A DNA stretch of 64,000 nucleotides. Source: Clostridia bacterium (GTDB lineage Bacteria; Bacillota; Clostridia; Christensenellales; Aristaeellaceae). This document shows, one piece after another, positions 8,040-64,000 of the stretch. The stretch's first letter is position 1; every line of letters starts with the position of its first letter. The stretch is taken from NCBI GenBank assembly GCA_017513475.1, contig JAFXFR010000027.1, positions 9,882 through 73,881 of the forward strand. Direction: 5' to 3'. The position numbers were made by a program, and so were the translations under genes. A model generated the notes under the pieces. It saw nothing but the letters and a program-made list of their open reading frames with translations, was not told the DNA's origin and searched no databases.

Positions 8040-9296
8040 TCAATCCAGCAGCCAGTCGTTGGCGTCGGGGTAGGTGTAGGGGAGACCATTGTCGATGCAA
8101 TACTGGCGCGCGTAGGAGTCGCGACCAACGGTGATGGAGGTCAGAGCGTCGCACCAGTAAAAAGCATCATCGCCGATGGAAGTGACGCTGTCGGGGATGG
8201 TGATGGTGGTCAGGGAGTCGCAGAAGATAAACGCATCATCGCCGATGGAGGTGACGCTGTCGGGGATGGTGATGGAGGTTAGGGAACTGCAGGAGTAGAA
8301 CGCCTCATCGCCAATAATCTTGATGTCTTGGGGGATAGCATAGATTTTTGCCGTGAAAGCGCGAGGATAGCAGACCAAGGTCTTGGTGCTTTTTTCAAAC
8401 AAAACACCATCGATGGTTGCAAGCGTTGGATGATCAACAGAAACGATGATGGATGTCAGTTTGTCGCAGTGCCTAAACGGATTCCTCCCGATGGAGGTGA
8501 CGCTGTCGGGGATGGTGATGGATGTCAGTTTGCTGCAGAAGGAGAACGCCGAATCACCGATGGAAGTAACGCTGTTGGGGATGGTGATGGAGATTAGGGA
8601 CGAGCAGCCTTGGAACGCGTACTCACCGATGGAGGTGACGCTGTCGGGAATGGTGATGGAGGTCAGATTGCTGCAATTGTAGAAAGCCTTATCACCGATG
8701 GAAGTGACGCTACTGGGGATGGTGACAGAGGTTAAGTTATTACAGTAGGAGAACGCCGAAGCGCCGATAATCTTGATGCCTTGGGGGATTGCATATCTTT
8801 TGGCTTTAGAAGCGCAGGGATAGCATATCAACGTCTTGGTGCTTTTTTCAAACAGTACACCATCAATGGTTGCAAACGTTGGATGATCAATAGAAACAAT
8901 GATGGATGTCAGTTTGTCGCAGTTCGAAAACGGATTCTTCCCGATGGAGGTGACGCTGTCGGGGATGGTGATGGAGGTCAGTTTGCTGCAGATGGAGAAC
9001 GCCGAATCACCGATGGAGGTGACGCTGTTGGGGATGGTGACGGAGGTCAGCTTGCTGCAACCGTAGAACGCCTGATAACCGATGGATGTGACGCTGTGTC
9101 CGTCCAAAGTTGCCGGAATGGTAAGCTCTGTTACAGCGCGTTTATAGTCCAAATAGTCTGTAATCTCCGCCGTCCCGTCCTCCAGCAGGACATACTTGAA
9201 ATCCCCGCTGATGTACACGGTCGGCTCATCCTCTGCCGCGCTGGTCAGCATGACGGCTGCCATCAGCATGATCAATAATACCAGAAATTTCTTCAT
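8040..9296 (-). CDS. BspA/TpLRR-type leucine-rich repeat surface protein
   Basis: 418 aa with a signal peptide. Carries more than 10 copies of a 23-aa unit (LTSITIPDSVTSIGDxAFxxCxx). Contains a large internal tandem duplication. Confidence 0.8.
   Translation of the reverse strand: MKKFLVLLIMLMAAVMLTSAAEDEPTVYISGDFKYVLLEDGTAEITDYLDYKRAVTELTIPATLDGHSVTSIGYQAFYGCSKLTSVTIPNSVTSIGDSAFSICSKLTSITIPDSVTSIGKNPFSNCDKLTSIIVSIDHPTFATIDGVLFEKSTKTLICYPCASKAKRYAIPQGIKIIGASAFSYCNNLTSVTIPSSVTSIGDKAFYNCSNLTSITIPDSVTSIGEYAFQGCSSLISITIPNSVTSIGDSAFSFCSKLTSITIPDSVTSIGRNPFRHCDKLTSIIVSVDHPTLATIDGVLFEKSTKTLVCYPRAFTAKIYAIPQDIKIIGDEAFYSCSSLTSITIPDSVTSIGDDAFIFCDSLTTITIPDSVTSIGDDAFYWCDALTSITVGRDSYARQYCIDNGLPYTYPDANDWLLD
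8288..9041 (-). repeat. Internal tandem duplication (about 453-nt period) within the LRR gene, on top of a 69-nt LRR unit periodicity
   Basis: Protein segments aa 86-185 and aa 237-336 are nearly identical (ITIPNSVTSIGDSAFSxCSKLTSITIPDSVTSIG.NPF..CDKLTSIIVS.DHPT.ATIDGVLFEKSTKTL.CYP). Confidence 0.85.
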
Positions 9297-38484: not shown

Positions 38485-39015
38485 ATGACCTACGCTGAAA
38501 TGTTTCTGGCGCTGCAGCCCGGCTTCTTTGAGAAGCCCTACATCGCCTCCCTGCCGGAGGACGAGATATTCGTGGAGCAGATCATCGACCTGCACACCTG
38601 GCAGCCGGGCGAACCGGTGTCCTGCCCGGAGCACATCACCTTCGGGTACTATCAGGGAGATATCGAAACCCTGCAGGCCGCTGTCCGCGAGGTGGAGGAC
38701 GACTGGGTACAGTGGTTCGGAAAAAGCGATCATGTTTTCTGCGCTTTTGACGGCGACAAGGTGGTCAGCTTCTGCCTGCTGGATTCCTTCGGCGAGGCAG
38801 ATGGCAAGAAGGTCGGCGCACCGGGCTGCGTGGGCACCGTCCCTGCATACCGCAAGCAGGGCATCGGATTACGGATGATCCAGCTGGCCACGGACATCCT
38901 CAAGCGGGATGGCTACGACCTGAGCTGGATCCATTACACCGCCGTGGGTCACTGGTACGCCAGGCTGGGCTACAAGACGGTTGTTCGCTGGAATAGCAAG
39001 GGTATCGTGGAATAA
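38485..39015 (+). CDS. GNAT family N-acetyltransferase
   Basis: Acetyl-CoA-binding R/Q-x-x-G-x-G motif (YRKQGIGLRM). 176 aa. Confidence 0.6.
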   Translation: MTYAEMFLALQPGFFEKPYIASLPEDEIFVEQIIDLHTWQPGEPVSCPEHITFGYYQGDIETLQAAVREVEDDWVQWFGKSDHVFCAFDGDKVVSFCLLDSFGEADGKKVGAPGCVGTVPAYRKQGIGLRMIQLATDILKRDGYDLSWIHYTAVGHWYARLGYKTVVRWNSKGIVE

Positions 39016-39017
39016 TT

Positions 39018-39057
39018 GAAAACCCTGCCGTTGCGATGCGCATCAGCAGGTTTTTTT
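39018..39057. terminator. Bidirectional terminator (GNAT / Card1-like convergent)
   Basis: AAAACCCTGC...GCAGG followed by TTTTTTT, with an inner palindrome GATGCGCATC. Confidence 0.7.
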
Positions 39058-39063
39058 GTATGC

Positions 39064-40251
39064 TTATTTGCGTCCGGTGCGCAGGGTTTTGCCCTCCCAG
39101 GCGAAGTGCCCGCGGAGCCCCTCCCGGTCAAACTGACGAAGATCCACCAGATGGACTCCCATTTCGTCGCAGCGGGCGCGGATATTATCCAGCTTTTCGT
39201 TTGCTTTGGGCATGCACAGCAGTACGGTCTGGGTATGTGCCGAGCCCAGACGATCGCCCAGCACATTCAGCTCGGCAACGGCCTTCAGATCCGGTGCGCA
39301 GGTCTTGCAGGAGACGATCATCAATCCCATGCCGGTGGTAGCGACCACATCCAGCTCGTTGATGATCTTCTCATTGTCCCACTTGACCACGCAGGAGAGT
39401 TGCACGTCATCGAAGGCGCCGCAGGAACGCAGGGCATCCCAGGCAGCGATCTCCAGCCATACGCCGAAATCACACAGGCAGTCCTTGATCTGCTCGCTGG
39501 CGAAGGTGACCCAAATTCCCTCATCACAGGCTTCCGCCTTGGTGAGGGCTCCTTCCTTGAGCAGGGTTGTCAGCAGCTTGCCCTTGCCGAGGGAAACGCC
39601 GTGTTCGCGGCAGTTGGCATTGTCCAGGAGGATAGTGACAGCGTGATCCTCTGCGCGGGAGGCACATTGCTGGAAACAGGTGGTGTGCTGCGTCCACTGG
39701 CGGGGGTGCTTCTTTTGAATGCCCAGCAGCCGGTGGGCCATGTCGACCAGAGGCGCCTTGAGATCGGCAGGAGTCAGACGGCCGAAGCGATCCAGTGTGG
39801 CATTGTTGAGAAGAAGACGCTGTGCCACCGTGAAGGAGCCGCCGCTGGCTTTGACTTCTTCGCCGGAGGGCAGGGCAATGTACCTGCCGTCCCGCGTTCT
39901 GGTATAGAGGCGGCAGGGTGTTTTGCCATAGGCCACGCCTGCGGAAAAGAGCATGACGTCGTTGCCGCCGGTGAGCTCAATGGCGTACTCTCCCAAATCG
40001 TCCCGATGAGCCTGCACCCAGGCCATCATGTGATTCACATCCAGCCGCTCCAGCCTTTCCATGCGCACATTGCATCTCAGACCAATGCGATTGAACATCT
40101 GCGCCAATTCCTTGCGCTCTTCCTTGGGATCCGCCAGATCATAATAAAAAAACACGATGGTCTTGGGATGCAGATGCCACGCGCCGGTCACATTGGTGAT
40201 GGGCTCACGCTGATCGTAAAGCTCCAGCAGGGTATCAACGGTAGGTGCCAT
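39064..40251 (-). CDS. Card1/Can2-like protein: N-terminal CARF-like Rossmann domain plus C-terminal PD-(D/E)xK (DUF1887) nuclease domain
   Basis: The C-terminal pattern GVWLEIAAWDAL...NELDVVATTGMGLMIVSCKT matches the GGWFEEY...NELDV...ECK pattern of Card1. The N-terminal ELTGGNDVM matches the CARF ITGGTK position. It has its own extended -10 promoter and terminator. Start placed at ATG 40251 (GGAAGGG RBS). Confidence 0.6.
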   Translation of the reverse strand: MAPTVDTLLELYDQREPITNVTGAWHLHPKTIVFFYYDLADPKEERKELAQMFNRIGLRCNVRMERLERLDVNHMMAWVQAHRDDLGEYAIELTGGNDVMLFSAGVAYGKTPCRLYTRTRDGRYIALPSGEEVKASGGSFTVAQRLLLNNATLDRFGRLTPADLKAPLVDMAHRLLGIQKKHPRQWTQHTTCFQQCASRAEDHAVTILLDNANCREHGVSLGKGKLLTTLLKEGALTKAEACDEGIWVTFASEQIKDCLCDFGVWLEIAAWDALRSCGAFDDVQLSCVVKWDNEKIINELDVVATTGMGLMIVSCKTCAPDLKAVAELNVLGDRLGSAHTQTVLLCMPKANEKLDNIRARCDEMGVHLVDLRQFDREGLRGHFAWEGKTLRTGRK

Positions 40252-40289
40252 GGATATCAGCCCTTCCACAGGAATTTGCTTGTATCCAA

Positions 40290-40318
40290 CAGTATAGCAT
40301 GTTTGATTCGATTCCGCA
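40290..40318 (-). promoter_or_regulatory. Promoter for the Card1-like gene
   Basis: Minus strand TTGCGG-17 nt-(TGC)TATACT, an extended -10. It lies downstream of the SASP terminator hairpin. Confidence 0.45.
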
Positions 40319-40379
40319 AGAAGGCTCCGCCGGCGTTGATACGCCAACGGAGCCTGTGTTTCTCGGTAGTATGACGGGA

Positions 40380-40661
40380 TTACTTGCCGGCCATGCCGCG
40401 CTCGGCCTGCTCGATCAGGCGCTTGACCATGTAGCCGCCGATATACCCGGCCTGACGGGAGGGCAGGTCGCCGTTGTAGCCCTTCTTCAGGTTGATGCCC
40501 AGCTCGCCGGCGATCTCATACTTCATGTTGTCCAGCGCCTGACGGGCTTCGGGCACCACGACGCGGCTCTGGTTGCTGTTGCTGGAAGCGTTCCCCTGCT
40601 GGAACTGATTCTGCTGGTTCTGCATGGGGGTCGGATTGGTGTTGTTGATGTTGTTATACAT
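40380..40661 (-). CDS. Alpha/beta-type small acid-soluble spore protein with an N/Q-rich N-terminal extension
   Basis: The VPEARQALDNMKYEIAGELGI...GGYMVKRLIEQAE block is typical of SASPs. AAGGAGGA RBS. Confidence 0.85.
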   Translation of the reverse strand: MYNNINNTNPTPMQNQQNQFQQGNASSNSNQSRVVVPEARQALDNMKYEIAGELGINLKKGYNGDLPSRQAGYIGGYMVKRLIEQAERGMAGK

Positions 40662-40681
40662 GGGTGTGATCCTCCTTATAA

Positions 40682-40897
40682 TCAGTGGTTGGCCATGCCG
40701 CGTTCGGCCTGCTCGATCAATCGCTTGACCATGTAGCCGCCCACATAGCCGTTTTCACGGGCGGACAGGTTACCCTTGTAGGCCTGCTGATAGTCCACGC
40801 CCAGCTCGCGGGCGATCTCATACTTCATGTTGTTCAGCGCGCCGCGGGCCTCAGGGACCATCTGGGACTTGGAGCTCTTGCTGCTCATGCGTTTCAC
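40682..40897 (-). CDS. Alpha/beta-type small acid-soluble spore protein
   Basis: VPEARGALNNMKYEIARELGV...GGYMVKRLIEQAE. AAGGAGGAGG RBS. Confidence 0.85.
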   Translation of the reverse strand: MKRMSSKSSKSQMVPEARGALNNMKYEIARELGVDYQQAYKGNLSARENGYVGGYMVKRLIEQAERGMANH

Positions 40898-50701: not shown

Positions 50702-51142
50702 TTACCAGTTGCAGGGCTTTTTGCCATTACGGACGCGTTCACGGTTGGGGTGGAAGGACCACTCCATCATACCGAGGAGGATGATGCAGCCGCCGCAGAC
50801 CAGGATGTAGCTGAAAAATATGCGAGAGATCCACTTACCGTCTGCCAGAAGAGCCCCCACAATTACCGGCAGAAACAGCGCGTGCAACGTGAGGTTCATC
50901 CCGCGTAGTACTTGGACGATGAAGGTTGCCTTGATGACCTTGCGTTCCAGCTTGCTGTACTTGTCGCGCACATAGCGGGGTGCGTCCAGCAACAGCCAGC
51001 GCCGTCCCAAAGGTACTTCTGCTTTGTAGCGTTTGCTGGCCTTGGCGGACTGATGGCTGCGAACCTCACAACCGAAGAGAGAACGGCAGATCAGCAGCAT
51101 CAGCAGGGCACCGAGGATAGCGCCAATGGGTGAAACGTTCAT
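50702..51142 (-). CDS. Hypothetical membrane protein (146 aa)
   Basis: AAGGAGGAA RBS. Its ATG overlaps the stop of the upstream nucleotidyltransferase gene (ATGA). Has 3-4 hydrophobic helices. Confidence 0.45.
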   Translation of the reverse strand: MNVSPIGAILGALLMLLICRSLFGCEVRSHQSAKASKRYKAEVPLGRRWLLLDAPRYVRDKYSKLERKVIKATFIVQVLRGMNLTLHALFLPVIVGALLADGKWISRIFFSYILVCGGCIILLGMMEWSFHPNRERVRNGKKPCNW

Positions 51143-51933
51143 GGTGTTCCTCCTTGATATTCCTGCATCCCCAGCGCCTTCTCCAGCAGCGCCGCGAAGG
51201 ACTGGATGGCCTCCGTCAGGCCCTCGGCGTAGGCGAGGACGCCTTCGTCCCGGATCAGCTCCGGCTGGCGGCGCACCGTCAGCGCCATGGAGAGCTCCGC
51301 CGGGCAGGGGCAGACGCGCTCGTCCAGCGCCCACTGGGCCGCGGCGGTCTTGGTGATGGGGCGGCCGTTCACCAGCACATACATACACCGGGCGATATCC
51401 AGCAGCCACCCGTAGGCATAGATGCTCCGCGCGCCCCGGCCATGCTCGCGGATGGTGTGGGTATGATCGGCGATGGCGGCTGTGATCTGGGCATAATCCG
51501 GCATTTCGATATGGCGGCGCACGTCCTTGCCCAGCAGGAGGTGGCCTGTCTGTAAAAGCGACATGCGGTCAAAGGCGGAGAAGGCATGGCTGGTCTTGAT
51601 GCGCTCGCCGGTGGTGCCCCAGTAGACCACGCGGGTCTCGCCGCCGGTGAGGAAGCTGCCCAGGTCGAGCATGCCGCCCTCAAAGAGGCGGTAATGGGGC
51701 GTATCCGGGTCGCGGGAGGCAAGGGCTTGGCGGAGCGTCACCAGTGCGGAGGCTTGCGCCTCCGTGATGGGCTCCCGGGTCAGCACCAGCAGGTCGATAT
51801 CGCTCCAGCCGGGGTGGTAATCCTCCGCCGTCACGGAGCCGTAGAGGTAGATGGAAGGCTGCGCATCCGCCAATATGCGGGCGATGCTCACGGCCATGGT
51901 GTTGATGGCCAGGCGCAGACGGGGTTCAAGCAT
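51139..51933 (-). CDS. Pol-beta-type nucleotidyltransferase with DUF4111-like C-terminal domain (aminoglycoside adenylyltransferase-like)
   Basis: IYLYGSVTAEDYHPGWSDIDLLVL matches the G-S...D-x-D motif of ANT(3'')/AadA-like enzymes. GGGAGG RBS. Confidence 0.6.
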   Translation of the reverse strand: MLEPRLRLAINTMAVSIARILADAQPSIYLYGSVTAEDYHPGWSDIDLLVLTREPITEAQASALVTLRQALASRDPDTPHYRLFEGGMLDLGSFLTGGETRVVYWGTTGERIKTSHAFSAFDRMSLLQTGHLLLGKDVRRHIEMPDYAQITAAIADHTHTIREHGRGARSIYAYGWLLDIARCMYVLVNGRPITKTAAAQWALDERVCPCPAELSMALTVRRQPELIRDEGVLAYAEGLTEAIQSFAALLEKALGMQEYQGGTP

Positions 51934-51947
51934 GCTTCATCCTCCCG

Positions 51948-52745
51948 TCAAAACAGCGCGATGAATTGCTGCCAGGCATTGCCGAGGTGCTCCCAATGGA
52001 CGGTCTTGCCCATCAGGTATTCCAGGCCGATCAGCAGCACCAGATGCGCCGGATAGATGGCGTAGCCGGCCCACTTCGGCAGACGTACCTGCCCGGGAAT
52101 GGTCCACAGCATCAGCGGCAGGGACAGCAGCGCCATGCCCTGCATCCGCAGAAAGGGGGAGAGCATCATGCCCAGCCTGGTGCGGGTAAATCCGGTCAGG
52201 CTCAGCCCGAACAGGCTGCCCAGCGTGTAGGAGCTGCTGCCCCAGTACAGGCAGAAGGCCACCATCACCGCAGCGATACCCGGGCGGGAGTCCTTTACGG
52301 CCCACAGCAGCAGGATCAGCAGTACGCCCTTCCAGCCGTAGTCCACATCCAGCAGCCAGGCCAGGGCGAGGGCAACCACCGGCGCCCAGATGTGGCTGCA
52401 GTACTTTTTCTCCCGCAGTCCCCAAAGGCCAAGCAGCGCCACCAGCAGCGTCAGGAAGATGTTGAAGTCGTTCCAGGGGTGATGGAGCGCAACCATGTAC
52501 AGCGGCTGGGAGATCAGGCCGATCAGGCCGATTCGCAGGATGTACCTGGGGAAGCAACGGGTATTTGCTGCGCCCACCACCATGCACCAGCAGTACAGCG
52601 GGAAGGCAATGCGCCCCAGAACACGCAGATCCGGCAGGTCGGGGAAGCACATCTTGCCAGCGTGATCAAGGAACATAAACAGCAGTGCGATCAGCTTCAG
52701 CAGGCTGGTATTCGTGTTGCCTGCGATGGATGCTTTTTGTGTCAT
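51948..52745 (-). CDS. TraX family membrane protein
   Basis: The LLKLIALLFMFLDHAGK N-terminal block and polytopic profile are typical of TraX. GAGGTG RBS precedes ATG 52745. Confidence 0.7.
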   Translation of the reverse strand: MTQKASIAGNTNTSLLKLIALLFMFLDHAGKMCFPDLPDLRVLGRIAFPLYCWCMVVGAANTRCFPRYILRIGLIGLISQPLYMVALHHPWNDFNIFLTLLVALLGLWGLREKKYCSHIWAPVVALALAWLLDVDYGWKGVLLILLLWAVKDSRPGIAAVMVAFCLYWGSSSYTLGSLFGLSLTGFTRTRLGMMLSPFLRMQGMALLSLPLMLWTIPGQVRLPKWAGYAIYPAHLVLLIGLEYLMGKTVHWEHLGNAWQQFIALF

Positions 52746-52775
52746 AGCGGCACCTCGAAGGGATGAATATGGGAT

Positions 52776-52804
52776 AGTATACAGCAAAACCGGGCGCGAA
52801 GCAA
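52776..52804 (-). promoter_or_regulatory. Promoter for the TraX / nucleotidyltransferase / membrane protein operon
   Basis: Minus strand TTGCTT-17 nt-TATACT. Confidence 0.45.
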
Positions 52805-55474: not shown

Positions 55475-57139
55475 TCATTCCTCGTCGCCCCACCAACGAT
55501 ACCCGACGCGGGCTTCGTACTCTTCGGCGGTCTCGAAGTGAGTGGAATCGCTGGCGACGATGACGGACGTTTCATCATAAAAGAAAGCGCCGCGCTGTAT
55601 CAGCTCCACCGATGCCGGAATCACAACAGGCTCCGTGATGACCACGCAGAAAGCCTCTGTTTCGATTACACGCAGGCTCTCGGGCAGGGTGAGATGGCCG
55701 AGTTCCCAGTCGTAAAACGCAAAGGAGCCGATCTCCTCTACGCCCTCCGGGATGACTACGTTCTGTCCCCACTCGGTGCCCCAGTTTTCCATGCTGCTGG
55801 AACCGATGCGGCGGACGGCGGGGATGGGCTTATCCGCGCACTGCGGCGTGGTGAAGAGGAGCGTATCCGTCTGCTTGTCGATGAGGAAGCCATCACGCAT
55901 TTCGTAACGCGGATTTCCTTCCGCAACGATGAACTCGGCGTGCACATGGTCGAAGCAGCCCTCCGGGATATCCGTCAGGCTGGCGGGAAAGTAAATCGCA
56001 TCCGCATTGTGGCAGCACCAGAATGCATCGTCAGACAGCCACTTCACGCCTTCGGGGATGACGAGGGCGAAGCTGTGTTCATAATACATTTCATAGGTAT
56101 TCAGCGCGTTGTCGGCGATGCCGATAACCGGCTGTCCGCCCAGTTCGGAGGGAAGTGTGATAACCCGCGGCACCCCATCGCCGTAGCCGTTGTAGTTCCA
56201 GTTGGTGATGACAGCGCCTTCATCGGTCAGCTCGTACTCGAACAGGTCAAGGGTGTATTCCTCCAGCAGGGAGTCGTCACCGGTGCGCTCGACGTATTCG
56301 AAGTAGGTCTCCAGCTGACCGTAGCCGTGGAAGAAAAGCTCCACCTCCGGGTCAAAGGCGTCCCAAGCCACAAAGGTGCACGTTGCGGGGATATCCACCT
56401 TTGTCAGCGGGCAGAGGTAAAACGCCCAGCTGCCGATGCTTTTGACGCTCGCCGGGATGGTGATCTCAGTGATATCGTTGCAGCTCAGCATCAGGTGGGG
56501 AATGCTGGTGAGGCCCGGAGGCAGCTTGATTTCGGTCAGGGAGGTGCAGTTGAAGGCGCCTGCGCCGATCTCCGTCACGCCAGCGGGGATGGTTACGCCG
56601 GTCACGTCCACACAGTCGTAGAACACTCCAGCGCCGATGGAAGTCAGTGTGTCCGGCAGGATGATGTGACCCTCGGCGTGCCAGTTTTTCAGGCATTCGT
56701 CCCCCAGACGAGTGACGGCGGGAAGGGGCTTCTCTGCTGCGGAGGGCGACGCATGCAGCAGCGTGTTCGTCCGTGCATCAATAAGGAAACCATCTTTGTT
56801 GGTGAAGTGCGGGTTGTTGGGATGGAGAACGATCTCCGTGCCGTAACCGAACTCGCCTTCTGGAAGCATTGTCATCGTTGCGGGTATCTCGATGGTATAT
56901 ACGATATACTCATGCCACATCGCGGATTCAGCGATACCCACCACTGGCGCGCCACCCAGCGTTTCTGGGATAGTGAGGCGTTCCATTACGCCGTCGGGGA
57001 AGGCGTAGTCGGTAATCACCGCGCCCTCATCCGTCAGCACATACGAAAAATCACCCTCGGTGAAGACCTCCGCCTCCTCCGCGAATGCCGCGCCCATCGT
57101 GCACAGCGCCATCAGTAATATAGCCAGCAGCTTTCTCAT
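55475..57139 (-). CDS. BspA-type leucine-rich repeat surface protein (two-module)
   Basis: Signal peptide MRKLLAILLMALCTMGAAFA. Two similar modules each begin with ..Y.LTDEGAVIT.. and continue into LRR-like units. Confidence 0.7.
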   Translation of the reverse strand: MRKLLAILLMALCTMGAAFAEEAEVFTEGDFSYVLTDEGAVITDYAFPDGVMERLTIPETLGGAPVVGIAESAMWHEYIVYTIEIPATMTMLPEGEFGYGTEIVLHPNNPHFTNKDGFLIDARTNTLLHASPSAAEKPLPAVTRLGDECLKNWHAEGHIILPDTLTSIGAGVFYDCVDVTGVTIPAGVTEIGAGAFNCTSLTEIKLPPGLTSIPHLMLSCNDITEITIPASVKSIGSWAFYLCPLTKVDIPATCTFVAWDAFDPEVELFFHGYGQLETYFEYVERTGDDSLLEEYTLDLFEYELTDEGAVITNWNYNGYGDGVPRVITLPSELGGQPVIGIADNALNTYEMYYEHSFALVIPEGVKWLSDDAFWCCHNADAIYFPASLTDIPEGCFDHVHAEFIVAEGNPRYEMRDGFLIDKQTDTLLFTTPQCADKPIPAVRRIGSSSMENWGTEWGQNVVIPEGVEEIGSFAFYDWELGHLTLPESLRVIETEAFCVVITEPVVIPASVELIQRGAFFYDETSVIVASDSTHFETAEEYEARVGYRWWGDEE

Positions 57140-57283
57140 AAAAAGACCGCCTTTCATGCGTGTATCTACATACATAACGCACGAGGCGGCCAAAATATTT
57201 CATATTTTTGCTATTTGTTTTGTGCAGCGTAGCGGACGATTCCGGCAACGGCCAGGCTGGGCGAGGAAAGGGGGCGAAGCCTT

Positions 57284-59821: not shown

Positions 59822-60046
59822 TCATTCCTTTCTCGCGGCTTTCAGGTCGCGAATGTCGTGCTCGGCTTCATCCATGCGGCCCTCCAGGCGGAAGGTGCGC
59901 TCGATCACCTGATTGTGGCGGTTGACCTGCTTCTCCAGCTGAGCCAGGCGGTACTGGGTCAGCCGGGAGGAGGCGATCACGCCCGCGCAGCTGCCGATGA
60001 GGGTGCATGCGCCGGAAATGATGGCGACGATGATGGCTTCCGTCAT
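59822..60046 (-). CDS. Phage small membrane protein (N-terminal TM plus coiled coil), lysis-cassette associated
   Basis: 74 aa. Located between the endolysin and the holin. ATGA overlap with the endolysin stop. Confidence 0.4.
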   Translation of the reverse strand: MTEAIIVAIISGACTLIGSCAGVIASSRLTQYRLAQLEKQVNRHNQVIERTFRLEGRMDEAEHDIRDLKAARKE

Positions 60047-60720
60047 CCGGGCATCACCTCCCGGCAGACCTCCTCCAGCTTGCCCCAGGTGAGCGGCCCG
60101 ACGACGCCGTCCCGGACCAGGTCATGAGTGGCCTGGAAGGACTTGACGCACTCCAGGGTGATGCGCCCGAAGACGCCGTCGATGGCCAGATCGTACCCGG
60201 CGGAGCGCAGGCAGCGCTGCAGGACGCGCACGGCCTCGCCGCGGTCGCCCCGGCGGAGCAAACCGCGCTCGTCTGCCGGGATGGCGGGGATGGAGTCGGC
60301 AGGCTGTTCGGCGGCTGCCAGCACGCCCCAGTACTTCCAGCGGCCGATCTTGCGGTCTGCCTTGACCTTCATGCCCTCGGTGGAGGCATGGACGATGCGC
60401 AGCGGGCTGACGCTGGTGACCAGGCCGATGTGGCAGAAGTCGCCCTCGTCGTCGCTGAATTTGGCAGGGGTGTCGGGCTTCCACTTGAACACCGCCATGC
60501 CGGGGCGCAGGTCGCGGACGGTGTCGATGGGGCCCTTTTCCCGCAGATGCCTGCGCCAGATGGTGTTGCTGCCGTGATAGATGCGCTGGCCCTGCAGCCG
60601 GTAGGCCCTGACGAACATGCCGGAGCAGTCGATGCCCCGCTGGTCGTTGGTGCCGGGGGTCTTGTAGGGCCAGCCGAGGCAGTCCTCAAAGTCGGAAATC
60701 AGTTTATCAATGTTGATCAT
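60043..60720 (-). CDS. Phage endolysin: NlpC/P60 peptidase plus PG_binding_1 domain
   Basis: Catalytic Cys in GIDCSGMF and His in FCHIGLV. The C-terminal LRRGDRGEAVRVLQRCL...DGVFG...LTWGKL is typical of a peptidoglycan-binding domain. Start at ATG 60720 (GAGGT RBS). Confidence 0.75.
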   Translation of the reverse strand: MINIDKLISDFEDCLGWPYKTPGTNDQRGIDCSGMFVRAYRLQGQRIYHGSNTIWRRHLREKGPIDTVRDLRPGMAVFKWKPDTPAKFSDDEGDFCHIGLVTSVSPLRIVHASTEGMKVKADRKIGRWKYWGVLAAAEQPADSIPAIPADERGLLRRGDRGEAVRVLQRCLRSAGYDLAIDGVFGRITLECVKSFQATHDLVRDGVVGPLTWGKLEEVCREVMPG

Positions 60721-60728
60721 AGCGTACC

Positions 60729-62147
60729 TCAGGTGGTGGTTTTTTCGATGACGGTCATGGTGACGGTGGAGGTCACGCCGACGCTGTCGGAGGCGGAGGA
60801 GCCATAGGGGAGGAAGCTGACGGCATGCTGCCCCTTGGCGATGGAGCCGAGCTCGTCGCGCTTCAAATAGGGCATAAGGCTGAAGGCGCCGGGCTTCCAT
60901 TCGTCATCCGCCGGGGCGTTGCCGTCCACCCGCACGTCGCGGATGGTCGCGCCCGCAGGCACGAAGAAGGTGACGCGGGCGTCCAGCAGGGCAGCCCAAT
61001 CCTCCACGCTGAAGTAGTGCACCACCGGCGCGGTATAGGTGCCGTGGGCGTAGTTGCGCTCCTCCACCGTGGTGACGGTGCCGCCCAGCAGCTTCCCGGC
61101 GGTGACAAGGCGCACCAGCTCGGCCACCTCGTCCTCCTCGGACTGCTGCTTCATGCGGTTGGAGAGGGTCACAACGGCCTGACCGGGTGCGCCGTATACG
61201 TCCTGCTTGTCGATGGCGACGATGCGGTGCTGCACGGTCAGGCCCATGTCCGGCAGGCAGAGGCGGCACATCCGACCCACGCGGAAGCAGTCGATGCTTT
61301 CGCCCGTGGCGGCGGACAGGTCCGCGGCGGTGAGGACGGTGGTGATCTCCGGCTCACTGTGGCGGGACAGGTACATCTCCGCCACGGACTGCAGCGTGGG
61401 CACGTCGAAGATCAGGTCATCCTGGAAGGTGCGGCTGATGAGGCCCAGCTCCTGCACAGCGGCGGATTCGAGGTGGTCGCTGCCGGTGAGGGGCACCAGG
61501 GTGATGCGCCCCGTATCGACCTCCGCGCCGAAGGGATACACGCGGGTGCACAGGCGGCTGCCATCCACCTGATGGCGGACGCTGCCCACGTTGCGGCACA
61601 GGCGGCCCTCGCAGAAGGGCGTGTCCGTCAGGGCGCGGATGTGCAGCTGCCAGGGCATGGCGGACTGATCGAAGTCCAGCGCGTAGCCTTCGGGGAGCAT
61701 GCCCAGAAGGGCGTTCAGCGCGTCGAGGAGGCTGGCGTACTCCGTGGCGAAGATGACGGTGAGGTCATCGGGGGTCTCCACGTCGCCGGGGGCCCACATG
61801 GGAATGGTCTGGCAGTCCAGCAGCCGGGCGAGGGCCTCTGCCACGCTGTCCATGAAGCCCTGGGCAGGGATGACGCTGTCGCCCAGGGTGCAAAGGCCGT
61901 GGGTGAGCTTCACCCGGCGGGCATGGGTTTCATCGGTCTCCACCGCCGTGACGCGGAAGACGCCGACGCTGCCCTGCTCGTCGTAGAGCTCCACCAGGTC
62001 GCGCAGGGCGATCTCCGGGGCGTCCGGCGGGAGCAGCATTTCCGCGGTGGACAGCCCGGACAGCGCCAGATGCAGCGAGAGCTTCACCGGCAGCAGTCGT
62101 GCTTTCTCCCGCTGGGCTGCATCCAGAAGGCGGGGCAGGCGGATCAT
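60729..62147 (-). CDS. Phage tail protein (Tal / Gp37-like minor structural protein)
   Basis: 472 aa. Lies immediately downstream of, and overlapping (ATGA), the Dit-like gene and upstream of the lysis cassette. The family call rests on position and general resemblance. Confidence 0.5.
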   Translation of the reverse strand: MIRLPRLLDAAQREKARLLPVKLSLHLALSGLSTAEMLLPPDAPEIALRDLVELYDEQGSVGVFRVTAVETDETHARRVKLTHGLCTLGDSVIPAQGFMDSVAEALARLLDCQTIPMWAPGDVETPDDLTVIFATEYASLLDALNALLGMLPEGYALDFDQSAMPWQLHIRALTDTPFCEGRLCRNVGSVRHQVDGSRLCTRVYPFGAEVDTGRITLVPLTGSDHLESAAVQELGLISRTFQDDLIFDVPTLQSVAEMYLSRHSEPEITTVLTAADLSAATGESIDCFRVGRMCRLCLPDMGLTVQHRIVAIDKQDVYGAPGQAVVTLSNRMKQQSEEDEVAELVRLVTAGKLLGGTVTTVEERNYAHGTYTAPVVHYFSVEDWAALLDARVTFFVPAGATIRDVRVDGNAPADDEWKPGAFSLMPYLKRDELGSIAKGQHAVSFLPYGSSASDSVGVTSTVTMTVIEKTTT

Positions 62148-62899
62148 GCGTACCGCCCCCTTGCCTTCCAGAGGGCCTCCATGGGCTGGAGGGCCGTTGC
62201 CTGCACGCGGCTGGTTTCCCCGCAGGGAGCCAGCAGCAGGTCATCGCTGCCGGCAGTACGCTTGGCCAGGATGCTCTCGCCGCTGATGACGGCGCTCAGC
62301 AGACCGTCCCCGGCCTCCACATAGCACTTGCCGCCTGCGGGCAGACGGATGTCCTCAAAGATGAGCCAGGTCGTGCCGCACTGCAGGCTCAGGCGGGTCA
62401 CGGGTTCGGAGCCGGTATTGGTTACGGTAACGCTCACCGGAGCTTCCCCTGCTGTGCCGGGAACAGTGAAGACGGATGCGCCGGAGGTGGTGAGAAATGT
62501 GGCCTCGGCGTCTTCCCAATAGGGGCAGCGGGCGGTGATGAATGTGAGCGTCAGCGGCTCTGTCCAGTCCTCGGCGGACATGGAAGGAAACTCGCTGCAC
62601 ACCACCGCCAGCCGCTGGCCGGGCCGGTCGGAGACGGTCAGCATGCCGCCCTTGGCAGCCCAGGTCTGTACGTTCTGCATGGCAGCGCGGCGCAGCCGGG
62701 GCTGCTCCTCCTGGATGGCGAAGGTGACGCGGACAGTAAGGCTCTCCCGGACGGGGCGGATCTGCTGTCCGCCCCGGGGAAGGAGAAAACGGTCAAGGCG
62801 CAGAAGGGGCGTGTCCTCACGGATATCCAGGATGCAGATGCGGTCATCCAGGGAAGCCAGGGACACGCCGTCCAGTGCGCAGGTGTACTTTGTGGTCAT
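62144..62899 (-). CDS. Phage distal tail protein (Dit, Sipho_tail-like)
   Basis: 251 aa. Resembles siphovirus Dit proteins in the N-terminal region and in length. AAAGGAGG RBS. Confidence 0.5.
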   Translation of the reverse strand: MTTKYTCALDGVSLASLDDRICILDIREDTPLLRLDRFLLPRGGQQIRPVRESLTVRVTFAIQEEQPRLRRAAMQNVQTWAAKGGMLTVSDRPGQRLAVVCSEFPSMSAEDWTEPLTLTFITARCPYWEDAEATFLTTSGASVFTVPGTAGEAPVSVTVTNTGSEPVTRLSLQCGTTWLIFEDIRLPAGGKCYVEAGDGLLSAVISGESILAKRTAGSDDLLLAPCGETSRVQATALQPMEALWKARGRYA

Positions 62900-62911
62900 G
62901 GTCAGCCTCCT

Positions 62912-63280
62912 TTATGTGGACGGAAAGAAGCGCAGCGTCCAGCGGGACTGGGCGCCCAGCAGTACCCCGTCCTGCAGGCAGCGGACGGGGCCGTCGCCGG
63001 TGAGGGTGATCGCGCCGGTTTCGACGGTCAGCCATGCGCCGCGAGGGGGCAGCAGACGGTGGAGTGCGTCCAGCTTTGCAAGGCGCTCGGTATGCGCTGA
63101 GCTGCTGCGGCTCCACACCGTCAGGGTGAGGCTGCCGGCGGAGACCGGCGTCAGGGGCGCGGCGATCTCAGCGGTGACGTAGGGGAAAGCGGCGCCCTCG
63201 GGGACGCAGTCCGCCTGGTACACGGGGATCGTCAGCCGGCTCAGGTGATCGGTCAGGGCAGAGAAGATGTGGCTCAGCAC
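62912..63280 (-). CDS. Phage neck/tail-completion-like protein (DUF3168-like)
   Basis: 122 aa. GTG start overlaps the upstream stop. The call rests on its position after the head-tail adaptor and its size. Confidence 0.35.
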   Translation of the reverse strand: MLSHIFSALTDHLSRLTIPVYQADCVPEGAAFPYVTAEIAAPLTPVSAGSLTLTVWSRSSSAHTERLAKLDALHRLLPPRGAWLTVETGAITLTGDGPVRCLQDGVLLGAQSRWTLRFFPST

Positions 63281-63618
63281 GGGATCACCACCCTTTCCAC
63301 GTTCACCTGGGCAAAGCGCAGGCCGGAAAATGCCGGAGCACGCATGCTGTCCGTACGGCTGGAAACGCGGTAGACGGCCTTATCCTTTTCCCTGCAGATG
63401 TAATCGCCTGGGGAGAGGGTCACGTCGTATTCGTGCAAGAGCACCGGCTCCTCCCGAAGGGCTGGCTGACCGCCGTGAGCAGGGCTGTCCCCGGCGGTGA
63501 AGGTCAGTACGCCCCGGAAGGACAGGCACTCCGCATAGGCAGCGATCTCGCCGCCCAGGCCGTCGGGCGTGGACTGCCTCTCCAGGAGCGTGAAGGGTTC
63601 AAACCACTTTTCGATCAT
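63274..63618 (-). CDS. Phage head-tail adaptor / head closure protein
   Basis: 114 aa. Resembles the Phage_H_T_join family (...VLLHEYDVTLSPGDYI...AVYRV..). ATGA overlap with the upstream gene. Confidence 0.5.
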   Translation of the reverse strand: MIEKWFEPFTLLERQSTPDGLGGEIAAYAECLSFRGVLTFTAGDSPAHGGQPALREEPVLLHEYDVTLSPGDYICREKDKAVYRVSSRTDSMRAPAFSGLRFAQVNVERVVIPC

Positions 63619-64000
63619 AGCGTCACCTCTGCAAACATGCGGCGGTAAGGGGCGAGGGCGGGAGCGAAGGCCTCCTGCCAGGTGATGGCGCGGCGGGAAA
63701 CGCTGTACTCGCCCAGCTTCTCGCCGGTGACGGCTGGATCGGGGCTGGCGGCGGCCCAGCAGGCGATATCTCCGCACAGGCGGATGAAATCGGCGGGGGG
63801 ATTGAGACGGTATACCGTGCCGGTCCAGCTCGTGTCGCCCAGATCGGGGATGCCGCCCTTCTCATCCAGCTGGTAGACGCCACAAGGAGCGTCTCCCCCG
63901 GCAACTGCGATCCACATGCCGGGATGGAATCCGTCGGAGGGGGTCAGCGTGCCGTCTGCATGGGTCCAGGCTGCGGAAATGGAATCGCGAATGAAGTGAT
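63615..64000 (-). CDS. Phage protein with a gp6-like head-tail connector C-terminus; 5' end lies outside the window
   Basis: The frame stays open upstream of the tracked Met to the window edge. The C-terminus (..GEKLGEYSVSRRAITWQEAFAPALAPYRRM) resembles gp6-type connectors. Confidence 0.4.
   Translation of the reverse strand, partial: HFIRDSISAAWTHADGTLTPSDGFHPGMWIAVAGGDAPCGVYQLDEKGGIPDLGDTSWTGTVYRLNPPADFIRLCGDIACWAAASPDPAVTGEKLGEYSVSRRAITWQEAFAPALAPYRRMFAEVTL

Follow-up and report, generated by a model that had tools for sequence, protein, structure and literature searches.

Can2/Card1-like CARF nucleases of a mostly orphan clade in gut Clostridia, with a predicted acidic sensor pocket

The stretch studied, a 64-kb window (64,000 nt) of contig JAFXFR010000027.1 from assembly GCA_017513475.1 (Clostridia bacterium), carries on its minus strand a Can2/Card1-like gene (Crf4, DUF1887), the product of which joins a CARF sensor domain to a PD-(D/E)xK nuclease domain. 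The gene is chromosomal, inherited vertically and under purifying selection, and it lies outside any local CRISPR or cyclase system. Its product belongs to a large, distinct and mostly orphan clade that, judged from alignments, has two fixed departures from Can2/Card1: SCK with Glu327 in the nuclease and an acidic CARF pocket. By analogy with solved relatives, the protein is probably a ligand-gated stress or defence nuclease with an activator other than cyclic tetra-adenylate (cA4).

The open reading frame (ORF) starts with ATG at 40251 and ends with TAA at 39064-39066, and a Shine-Dalgarno-like GGAAGGG is located 9-15 nt 5' of the start codon. The product is 395 aa long on recount, not 396 aa as given in an earlier note on this DNA; the strings quoted there (ELTGGNDVM, GVWLEIAAWDAL, and NELDVVATTGMGLMIVSCKT) were all found in the translation of the ORF. 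The assignment to the Can2/Card1 architecture is secure, because Pfam, PADLOC, PDB profile, and AlphaFold2 (AF2)/Foldseek matches all lead to it. Pfam PF09002 (Card1_endonuc) matches residues 263-368 with E=2.2e-12 and 47 bits (cut-off 26.4), and PADLOC model CARF4--CARF_PDDEXK aligns at positions 2-370 of 397 to residues 6-373 with E=1e-24. No NCBIfam model matches the protein. A single-sequence search of PDB recognized Can2 7bdv (E=1.5e-4), while the family profile found Can2 7bdv over its full length (E=3e-10), VC1899 in the nuclease half only (E=2.5e-8), and DbCan2. The AF2 model, computed from a 73-sequence alignment, has pLDDT of 91.3 and pTM of 0.88. VC1899 (1xmx) was the top match of this model in Foldseek against PDB (E=3.6e-21, template modelling (TM) scores 0.74/0.77), followed by SthCan2 7bdv (TM 0.70/0.77), then DbCan2, Cdn1, Card1, TbrCan2, Can1, and later CARF-only proteins. 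E-values for 1xmx, 7bdv, 9u49, and 6xl1 are 1e-15 to 1e-21, and TM scores for VC1899, Can2, and Card1 are in the range of 0.65-0.77. The Card1/Can2-type identity that the earlier note had read from the letters, and for which it proposed hidden Markov model (HMM) searches and structure prediction, is borne out by these profile and fold matches. The domains are listed in Table 1; the middle one (aa 136-255) corresponds to the INS domain of Can2 (PMC10783487).

Predicted catalytic residues of the nuclease are E267 (helix 264-276), E299 and D301 (strand 296-306), S314-C-K316 (strand 309-316), and E327 (helix 322-334). The motif reads E267-E299xD301-S314CK316 and satisfies E-ExD-(E/S)CK, which was given as the family motif by Jungfer et al. 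(PMC10783487). When aligned to SthCan2, E299/D301 fall on E276/D278, K316 on K293, and Ser314 on Glu291. From the GGWFEEY...NELDV...ECK pattern described in the earlier note, the PD-(D/E)xK site (E267, E299, D301, and K316) stands, but ECK is actually SCK. All 83 distinct locus homologs and all 125 cluster representatives, one per 50%-identity cluster, have E267, E299, D301, S314, and K316 unchanged; at position 327, 112 of the 125 representatives have E and 11 have K. AF2 places Glu327 on the helix that follows beta3, and in the alignment VC1899 and DbCan2 (8bao) have Lys at this position. The beta3 Glu and helix Lys of canonical enzymes would be replaced here by Ser and Glu, and the site seems to be rewired but complete. 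The restriction endonucleases Cfr10I and NgoMIV have a PD...SxK...E site, in which the beta3 acid is changed to Ser and a conserved Glu is present on the next helix. Compared by sequence pattern, they share Ser and helix Glu with the clade, but the offset from Ser is +16 there and +13 here. In TbrCan2, the analogous helix residue Glu372 is too distant from the metal (PMC10783487). By analogy, the Glu-to-Ser change gives no sign of inactivation, because Ser is invariant and a published variant, and because TbrCan2, which has Ser356 at the ExK-Glu position, is an active Mn-dependent and cA4-gated nuclease (PMC10783487). The D/E/K triad, a loss of which the earlier note held to speak against its own reading, is only nominally lost through this change, which is no indication of inactivation.

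The CARF domain has a beta1 loop reading TLLELYD13..P17..N20 and a beta4 loop reading E92-L-T-G95-G96-N-D98, followed by Y116 and R118. The ELTGGND loop departs from NxTGGTK at the first, sixth, and last positions. The string ELTGGNDVM does lie at the position of the CARF ITGGTK loop, as the earlier note placed it, and the GG pair is kept, but the Asn, Thr, and Lys positions of NxTGGTK are occupied by E92, the Asn at position 97, and D98. The NxTGGTK motif is conserved in all seven Can2 clades (Jungfer et al., PMC10783487), and the cA4 contacts conserved between Can1 and Can2 are Ser19, Thr42, Lys99, and Tyr118 (Zhu et al., PMC7969007). In the profile alignment to Can2 7bdv, Asp13 is found at Ser19, Asp98 at Lys99, Tyr116 at Tyr118, and Glu92 at the Asn of NxTGGTK. 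The counterpart of Thr42 is probably Asp38, where beta2 ends and the alignment gap is ambiguous and movable. From NxTGGTK and the four-contact set, only Tyr116 and the GG pair are kept. The acids are conserved in the clade: in alignment A3 (73 sequences), D13 is present in 72, D/E92 and D/E98 in all 73, and E/D38 in 62 sequences, and among the 125 cluster representatives D13 and D/E92 reach about 95% and D/E98 86%. According to Makarova et al. (2014, PMC4012209), nucleotide-binding CARF domains are recognised by a K/R that follows strand 4, and CARF families without it "might bind distinct ligands". The acidic pocket predicted from these alignments suggests that the usual cA4 is probably not sensed. 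Sensing of cA3, cA4, or cA6, as implied in the earlier note, is doubtful because the NxTGGTK lysine and the beta1 serine, cA4 binders in Can2 (PMC7969007), are missing.

A word-indexed search gave 55 full-length homologs with 44-100% identity, and 212 with a profile. In an exhaustive HMM search, the number of clusters was 3405 with E<=1e-3 as the limit, 1824 with E<=1e-10, and 675 with E<=1e-30. Among GTDB species representatives there are 80 loci, nearly all from uncultured gut or rumen Clostridia (Christensenellales, Oscillospiraceae, Lachnospiraceae, Blautia), the closest being from a Christensenellales metagenome-assembled genome with 93% identity; metagenomes provided a further 80 loci of the clade. 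Cas genes were sought in these about 160 loci by CRISPR-repeat finding and by profiles derived from one type III-B locus, designated L008 and described below, and no CRISPR arrays and no homologs of its Cmr or CorA proteins were found in the 80 genome and 80 metagenome loci. Cas genes were also absent from the Pfam-annotated contexts L005/6, L089, L093, L094, L095, and L176. No conserved partner gene was revealed by all-against-all ORF clustering of 83 loci, where the best neighbour family is common to at most 13 of 83; the top neighbour clusters (ABC ATPase, response regulator, thioredoxin-like, peptidase) are each lineage-specific and housekeeping. Homologs were not found among INPHARED phages, PLSDB plasmids, or IMG/VR, and a mobile or viral origin was rejected on these grounds. 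Linkage to type III CRISPR-Cas was seen neither in the 64-kb window nor in about 170 related loci, the L008 relative being the exception. The earlier note set such an orphan context against established biology, but the two are not at odds: orphan DUF1887 proteins are known (VC1899), and by 2014 PF09002 genes without linkage to CRISPR had been described (PMC4012209).

The note's statement that cas10, CRISPR arrays, ring nucleases, and cyclases are all absent from the 64 kb was confirmed. No CRISPR array and no homologs of the L008 Cmr, CorA, or TraG-like proteins are in the window, and the approximately 55 window genes covered by Pfam annotation or scans have housekeeping functions only. The gene order SASP-SASP-gene-GNAT-PFK-HAD-YbaK is kept in two related loci, L009 (93% identity) and L011 (75%). 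In L001 (80% identity), the GNAT side is kept and the SASP side is replaced by a mobile element of about 6 kb. The GNAT/Card1-like/SASP neighbourhood, whose conservation the earlier note proposed to check, is accordingly kept on the GNAT side in close relatives, but on the SASP side only in the window, L009, and L011. As a functional clue the SASP adjacency fails: L001 has lost it, about 170 other loci do not have it, and it represents synteny by descent. Being confined to close lineages, it has no functional weight, and the idea that the gene is functionally tied to SASP or sporulation genes was dropped, such neighbours occurring only in the three closest lineages. The ratio of nonsynonymous to synonymous substitution rates (dN/dS) of the Can2-like gene is 0.08 against L009, 0.125 against L001, and 0.19 against L011; its neighbours GNAT, HAD, and YbaK have 0.11-0.16, and PFK and DnaB about 0.05.

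The relative P0051 (locus L008), 48% identical, is inside a type III-B locus with the order Cas10b, Cmr3, Cmr4, Cmr5, Cmr6, 286-aa protein, TraG/VirD4-like ATPase, CorA-like protein, 175-aa protein, and Can2-like gene, after which Cas6 is coded on the opposite strand. The Cas10b is 514 aa long, has GGDD but no HD, and its best PDB match is 9lq5; the CorA-like protein was identified by PADLOC with E=2.3e-54. The relative P0050 (L092) lies in a decayed copy of an L008-type locus, in which Cmr4 is inverted, Cas6 is fragmented, and CorA is a 40-aa remnant, and which keeps the 286-aa protein, the TraG-like ATPase, the 175-aa protein, and an intact Can2-like gene. The relative P0042 (L177), 67% identical to the window protein, is accompanied by a 287-aa protein and the TraG-like ATPase only, with a 21-nt gap before the Can2-like gene. 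With one relative in a CorA-type type III-B locus, one in a decayed copy, and one in a cassette remnant, an ancillary gene of such loci was probably the ancestor of the clade. CorA is the only characterised effector of S-adenosylmethionine-AMP (SAM-AMP) and "a signature of this pathway" (PMC10600005, PMC11229360, PMC12669027), while the SAM-AMP pathway's components are "not thoroughly characterized" according to the 2025 classification. No CARF-type SAM-AMP receptor was reported in the literature searched. Co-location of CorA, a SAM-AMP-type Cas10, and a degrading enzyme is not seen for the window gene. CorA and a GGDD Cas10b do occur together beside the 48%-identical relative, and its locus L008 gave no confirmed NrN, DEDD, or lyase enzyme.

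The 286/287-aa protein, the TraG/VirD4-like ATPase (about 510 aa), and the Can2-like gene form a three-gene cassette (L008:5108-11182, L092:2063-6549, L177:7582-11194), found with intact type III-B and CorA genes, with their decayed remains, and with neither, respectively. The 286/287-aa protein has a degenerate P-loop-like APGCGVTT. The cassette matched no PADLOC system apart from a weak mad8, and the 175-aa and 286-aa proteins of L008 have no Pfam, PADLOC, or PDB sequence match. In the 175-aa protein, coded between the CorA and Can2-like genes (L008:9456-9983), DEDDh-like motifs FVLDVESDG ... HNPLYD were seen by eye only; a putative role as the DEDD SAM-AMP phosphodiesterase of CorA loci would fit. 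A scan of JGI metagenomes for the P0051 subclade and a viral scan for the L008 CorA protein found nothing.

Among proteins of known structure, the closest precedent and best structural match is VC1899 of Vibrio cholerae (1XMX), the founding member of DUF1887/PF09002, which has the same CARF and PD-(D/E)xK architecture and which, like the window gene, is an orphan unlinked to type III CRISPR (PMC7969007). Both proteins have acids at the Ser19 and Thr42 positions of Can2, Asp9 and Asp34 in VC1899 and Asp13 and probably Asp38 here. As far as the alignment tells, the window gene combines the same traits as VC1899, no CRISPR linkage and an acidic CARF pocket not of the cA4 type. VC1899 has weak RNase activity outside the control of cA4, and although its structure dates from 2004, the literature searched assigns it no ligand or role (PMC7969007). 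The two proteins are only 17% identical. VC1899 has ECK, Arg96 at the Lys99 position, Val at Tyr118, and Lys at 327, whereas the clade has SCK, Asp98, Tyr116, and Glu327, lives in another host phylum, and is much larger. The cA4-activated Can2/Card1 proteins (SthCan2 7BDV, TresuCard1 6WXW-6XL1, Cdn1 9U49) have the same architecture and fold, and share with the clade the positions of E-ExD-(E/S)CK, the GG loop, and the pocket Asn and Tyr. The clade differs from them in acids replacing the NxTGGTK lysine and beta1 serine, in Ser replacing the ExK Glu, and in being almost completely unlinked to cas genes. TbrCan2 (8Q3Y-8Q44), a clade 1 Can2 of type III-D, has Ser at the ExK-Glu position too and completes its site from the following helix (PMC10783487). 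Its motif is E-ExD-SxTTS-K, with the beta3 lysine lost and Lys369 supplied by the helix, while the window protein keeps K316 and has Glu327 as the helix residue at +13; TbrCan2 keeps the cA4-binding CARF motif, and the window protein does not. The L008 relative, placed downstream of a CorA-like effector and near an HD-less GGDD Cas10b and Cmr3-6, resembles the SAM-AMP loci of CorA-type III-B systems (B. fragilis, C. botulinum), from which the window differs in having no CorA or Cmr genes.

If solved relatives are a guide, the CARF sensor and the PD-(D/E)xK nuclease would work as a homodimer. A small ligand would bind in the composite CARF pocket, the two nuclease domains would close into a metal-dependent active state, and the activated protein would cut ssDNA or ssRNA, or nick dsDNA. 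Fold, motifs, conservation, selection, and genomic contexts are established by the analysis, while dimerisation, ligand gating, nuclease activity, and the identity of the ligand are inferred. Several points weigh against a nuclease gated by something other than cA4. The shape and charge of the pocket and the geometry of Ser314 and Glu327 are predicted from alignment and secondary structure alone, and the equivalence of Thr42 with position 37/38 depends on an alignment in which the gap is movable. Both ligand gating and nuclease activity are extrapolations from proteins of only 10-17% identity. A clade member inside a type III-B locus means that an acidic pocket is compatible with some CRISPR signalling, and a type III system elsewhere in the genome, of which a 64-kb window was seen, may act in trans. 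A divergent Csm-type Cas10 could also have been missed in the about 160 loci, but eight Pfam-annotated contexts without cas genes argue against this.

One alternative is an ordinary Can2, activated by cA4 (or cA6), serving in trans a type III locus elsewhere in the genome, and an orphan by its position only; the limited view of the genome leaves room for it. Family membership and fold would agree with such a role, as would the position of P0051 inside a type III-B locus, the retained GG loop and Tyr116 (Tyr118 in Can2), and the basic patch of R118 and K/R119 that follows. It is nevertheless quite unlikely. Acids stand at two and probably three of the four cA4 contacts (D13 and D98, probably also D38), NxTGGTK is missing, and VC1899 with its similar acidic pocket is not regulated by cA4. 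Outside the L008/L092 lineage none of about 170 loci is linked to cas genes, and the CRISPR-linked member sits with CorA, a marker of SAM-AMP rather than of cyclic oligoadenylate (cOA) signalling (PMC12669027). The VC1899 precedent, a weak RNase free of cA4 regulation, would speak for a ligand-independent cellular nuclease in repair, recombination, or sporulation-related DNA/RNA turnover, with no defence role and with the CARF domain as a dimerisation scaffold only or as a metal or metabolite sensor. The stable lineage-specific synteny with dN/dS like that of the neighbours, the absence from plasmids and phages, clade neighbours such as PolA, RecO, RecJ, DnaD/DnaI-like, and PFK genes, and a spore-related setting in two of the lineages (with SASP and YhcN in the window and with GerM in L093) are in line with this. 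It is still an improbable reading, since the predicted pocket residues (D13, N20, GG, D/E92, and D/E98) are conserved like the catalytic ones, which indicates a conserved binding function. An ungated non-specific nuclease with its own promoter would moreover be toxic, relatives occur in a type III-B locus or in the TraG-like cassette, and spore-gene adjacency is absent from about 170 loci. Very remote is the reading as a decaying, functionless relic of a lost type III locus. The L092 locus has indeed decayed around an intact homolog, and GC content at third codon positions (GC3) of the window gene, 0.70, is below that of its neighbours, but hundreds of clusters keep a full-length ORF, dN/dS stays at 0.08-0.27, the residues of catalytic site and pocket are invariant down to about 25% identity, and synteny is retained across species-level lineages. 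Pseudogene or relic status was rejected on the basis of dN/dS.

Within the preferred reading of a ligand-gated nuclease not activated by cA4, SAM-AMP is an attractive candidate ligand because of the CorA context and because an acidic pocket would suit sulfonium and amino groups. The clade, marked by [Y/F]D...N, (D/E)xxGGx(D/E), and SCK, might have switched from cyclic oligoadenylate to SAM-AMP, which the Cas10 of CorA-type III-B systems produces, or to another cationic or metal-bridged signal; this is put forward very tentatively, because it is based on one intact and one decayed locus. If true, the SAM-AMP pathway would have in this clade its first receptor of CARF type, the hundreds of orphan copies on gut Clostridia chromosomes, the window gene among them, would be trans-acting effectors or stand-alone sensors of a related host or phage metabolite, and in some lineages the protein would work with the TraG/VirD4-like ATPase and the 287-aa partner.

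Table 1. Features of the Can2-like gene and its immediate surroundings in the window.
Feature	Position	Strand	Basis or remark
Can2/Card1-like (Crf4, DUF1887) gene	39064..40251	minus	395 codons and TAA stop
CARF domain, about aa 1-135	39847..40251	minus	AF2 secondary structure, profile alignment to Can2 7bdv, conservation
Middle insertion/linker domain, about aa 136-255, mixed helices and short strands	39487..39846	minus	AF2 secondary structure
PD-(D/E)xK nuclease domain, about aa 256-395	39067..39486	minus	Pfam match at residues 263-368, residue invariance
Convergent GNAT acetyltransferase gene	38485..39015	plus	Only neighbour kept in all close relatives; not operonic with Can2-like gene
Hairpin between convergent GNAT and Can2-like genes	39024..39050	both	Probable bidirectional intrinsic terminator
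Candidate promoter	40291..40319	minus	By eye: TTGCGG, 17-nt spacer, extended -10 TGcTATACT (40299-40291)
15-bp GC-rich hairpin directly after upstream SASP gene	40322..40355	minus	-34.3 kcal/mol, z = -5.3
Two alpha/beta-type SASP genes upstream	40380..40897	minus	Pfam PF00269 in L089; only in window, L009, and L011

The hairpin between the convergent genes fits the bidirectional terminator described in the earlier note: it folds on both strands (-17.7 kcal/mol on the minus and -15.5 kcal/mol on the plus strand, z = -3.9 and -2.1) and has an A7/T-tract on each side. The GC-rich hairpin on the other side of the gene is a probable SASP terminator isolating the Can2-like transcript. Strong hairpins on both sides support a monocistronic unit. 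The note's own transcription unit for the gene holds in this respect, while the extended -10 promoter it saw is plausible but visible by eye only: a scan with the sigma-70 consensus reported no promoter on the strand of the gene, TGcTATACT being below the threshold. No convincing sigmaG-type promoter was seen by eye. The GC3 of 0.70 compares with 0.80-0.93 for most neighbours and fits an older horizontal acquisition or low expression.

The window has GC content of 61.6%, and no Rfam family matched it at gathering thresholds. The 20 kb around the gene code for MetH, MetA, amidohydrolase, HSP20, two VanY, YhcN/YlaJ, the two SASPs, the Can2-like protein, GNAT, PFK, HAD hydrolase, YbaK, YhaM-like protein, DnaB, and L9, and the rest of the window for glycosidases, peptidases, ComEC, AsnA, MnmE, and the like; prophage-tail genes occupy its far end. 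This prophage-like block (60043-63777, minus strand) includes a PG_binding_1 protein (60043-60900), Prophage_tail PF06605 (60729-62147), and several unknown ORFs of small size. BspA-type leucine-rich repeat (LRR) proteins are coded at 8040-9296 and 55475-57193, both on the minus strand. The former has a signal-peptide-like N-terminus and ten 69-nt repeats that could pass for a repeat array. These 69-nt (23-aa) LRR coding repeats (8130-9104) are the sole repeat family in the window, and their reading as a CRISPR array was rejected, the units being coding repeats of a BspA-type LRR protein. The single nucleotidyltransferase of the window (NTP_transf_2, 51139-51933) was rejected as a CD-NTase or mCpol cyclase, as it is ANT(3'')/(9)-like. 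It is far below the NCBIfam cut-offs, is not a called resistance gene, and adjoins a TraX-family protein, the two together spanning 51139-52787 on the minus strand.

The mobile element of L001 (L001:3889-9871, also in L002 and L003) codes for an HTH regulator, a DnaG-like Zn-ribbon protein, a DUF5906 primase, a Mob_Pre relaxase, and a large serine recombinase; its insertion lies immediately upstream of the Can2-like gene. In L093 (L093:2176-6118), a 47%-identical orphan relative has GerM (Germane) domain genes on both flanks. With SASP and YhcN in the window, this makes two spore-related neighbourhoods, which are probably coincidental in spore-formers.

Orphan CARF proteins have been known since the structure of VC1899 in 2004, and the clade adds a large, well-conserved, and mostly orphan set to them, with the 675 clusters at E<=1e-30. 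The predicted acidic pocket, the intact nuclease site, and the relatives in CorA-type III-B loci together offer a testable handle on what orphan CARF proteins sense. If SAM-AMP or a new ligand proves true, the clade would be a second effector class in SAM-AMP signalling or would reveal a new CARF ligand. If plain activation by cA4 in trans proves true, the published cA4-contact rules for Can2 would not be predictive. Labelling every PF09002 protein a "cOA-activated CRISPR ancillary nuclease" would be wrong for the context of this clade, and possibly for its chemistry.

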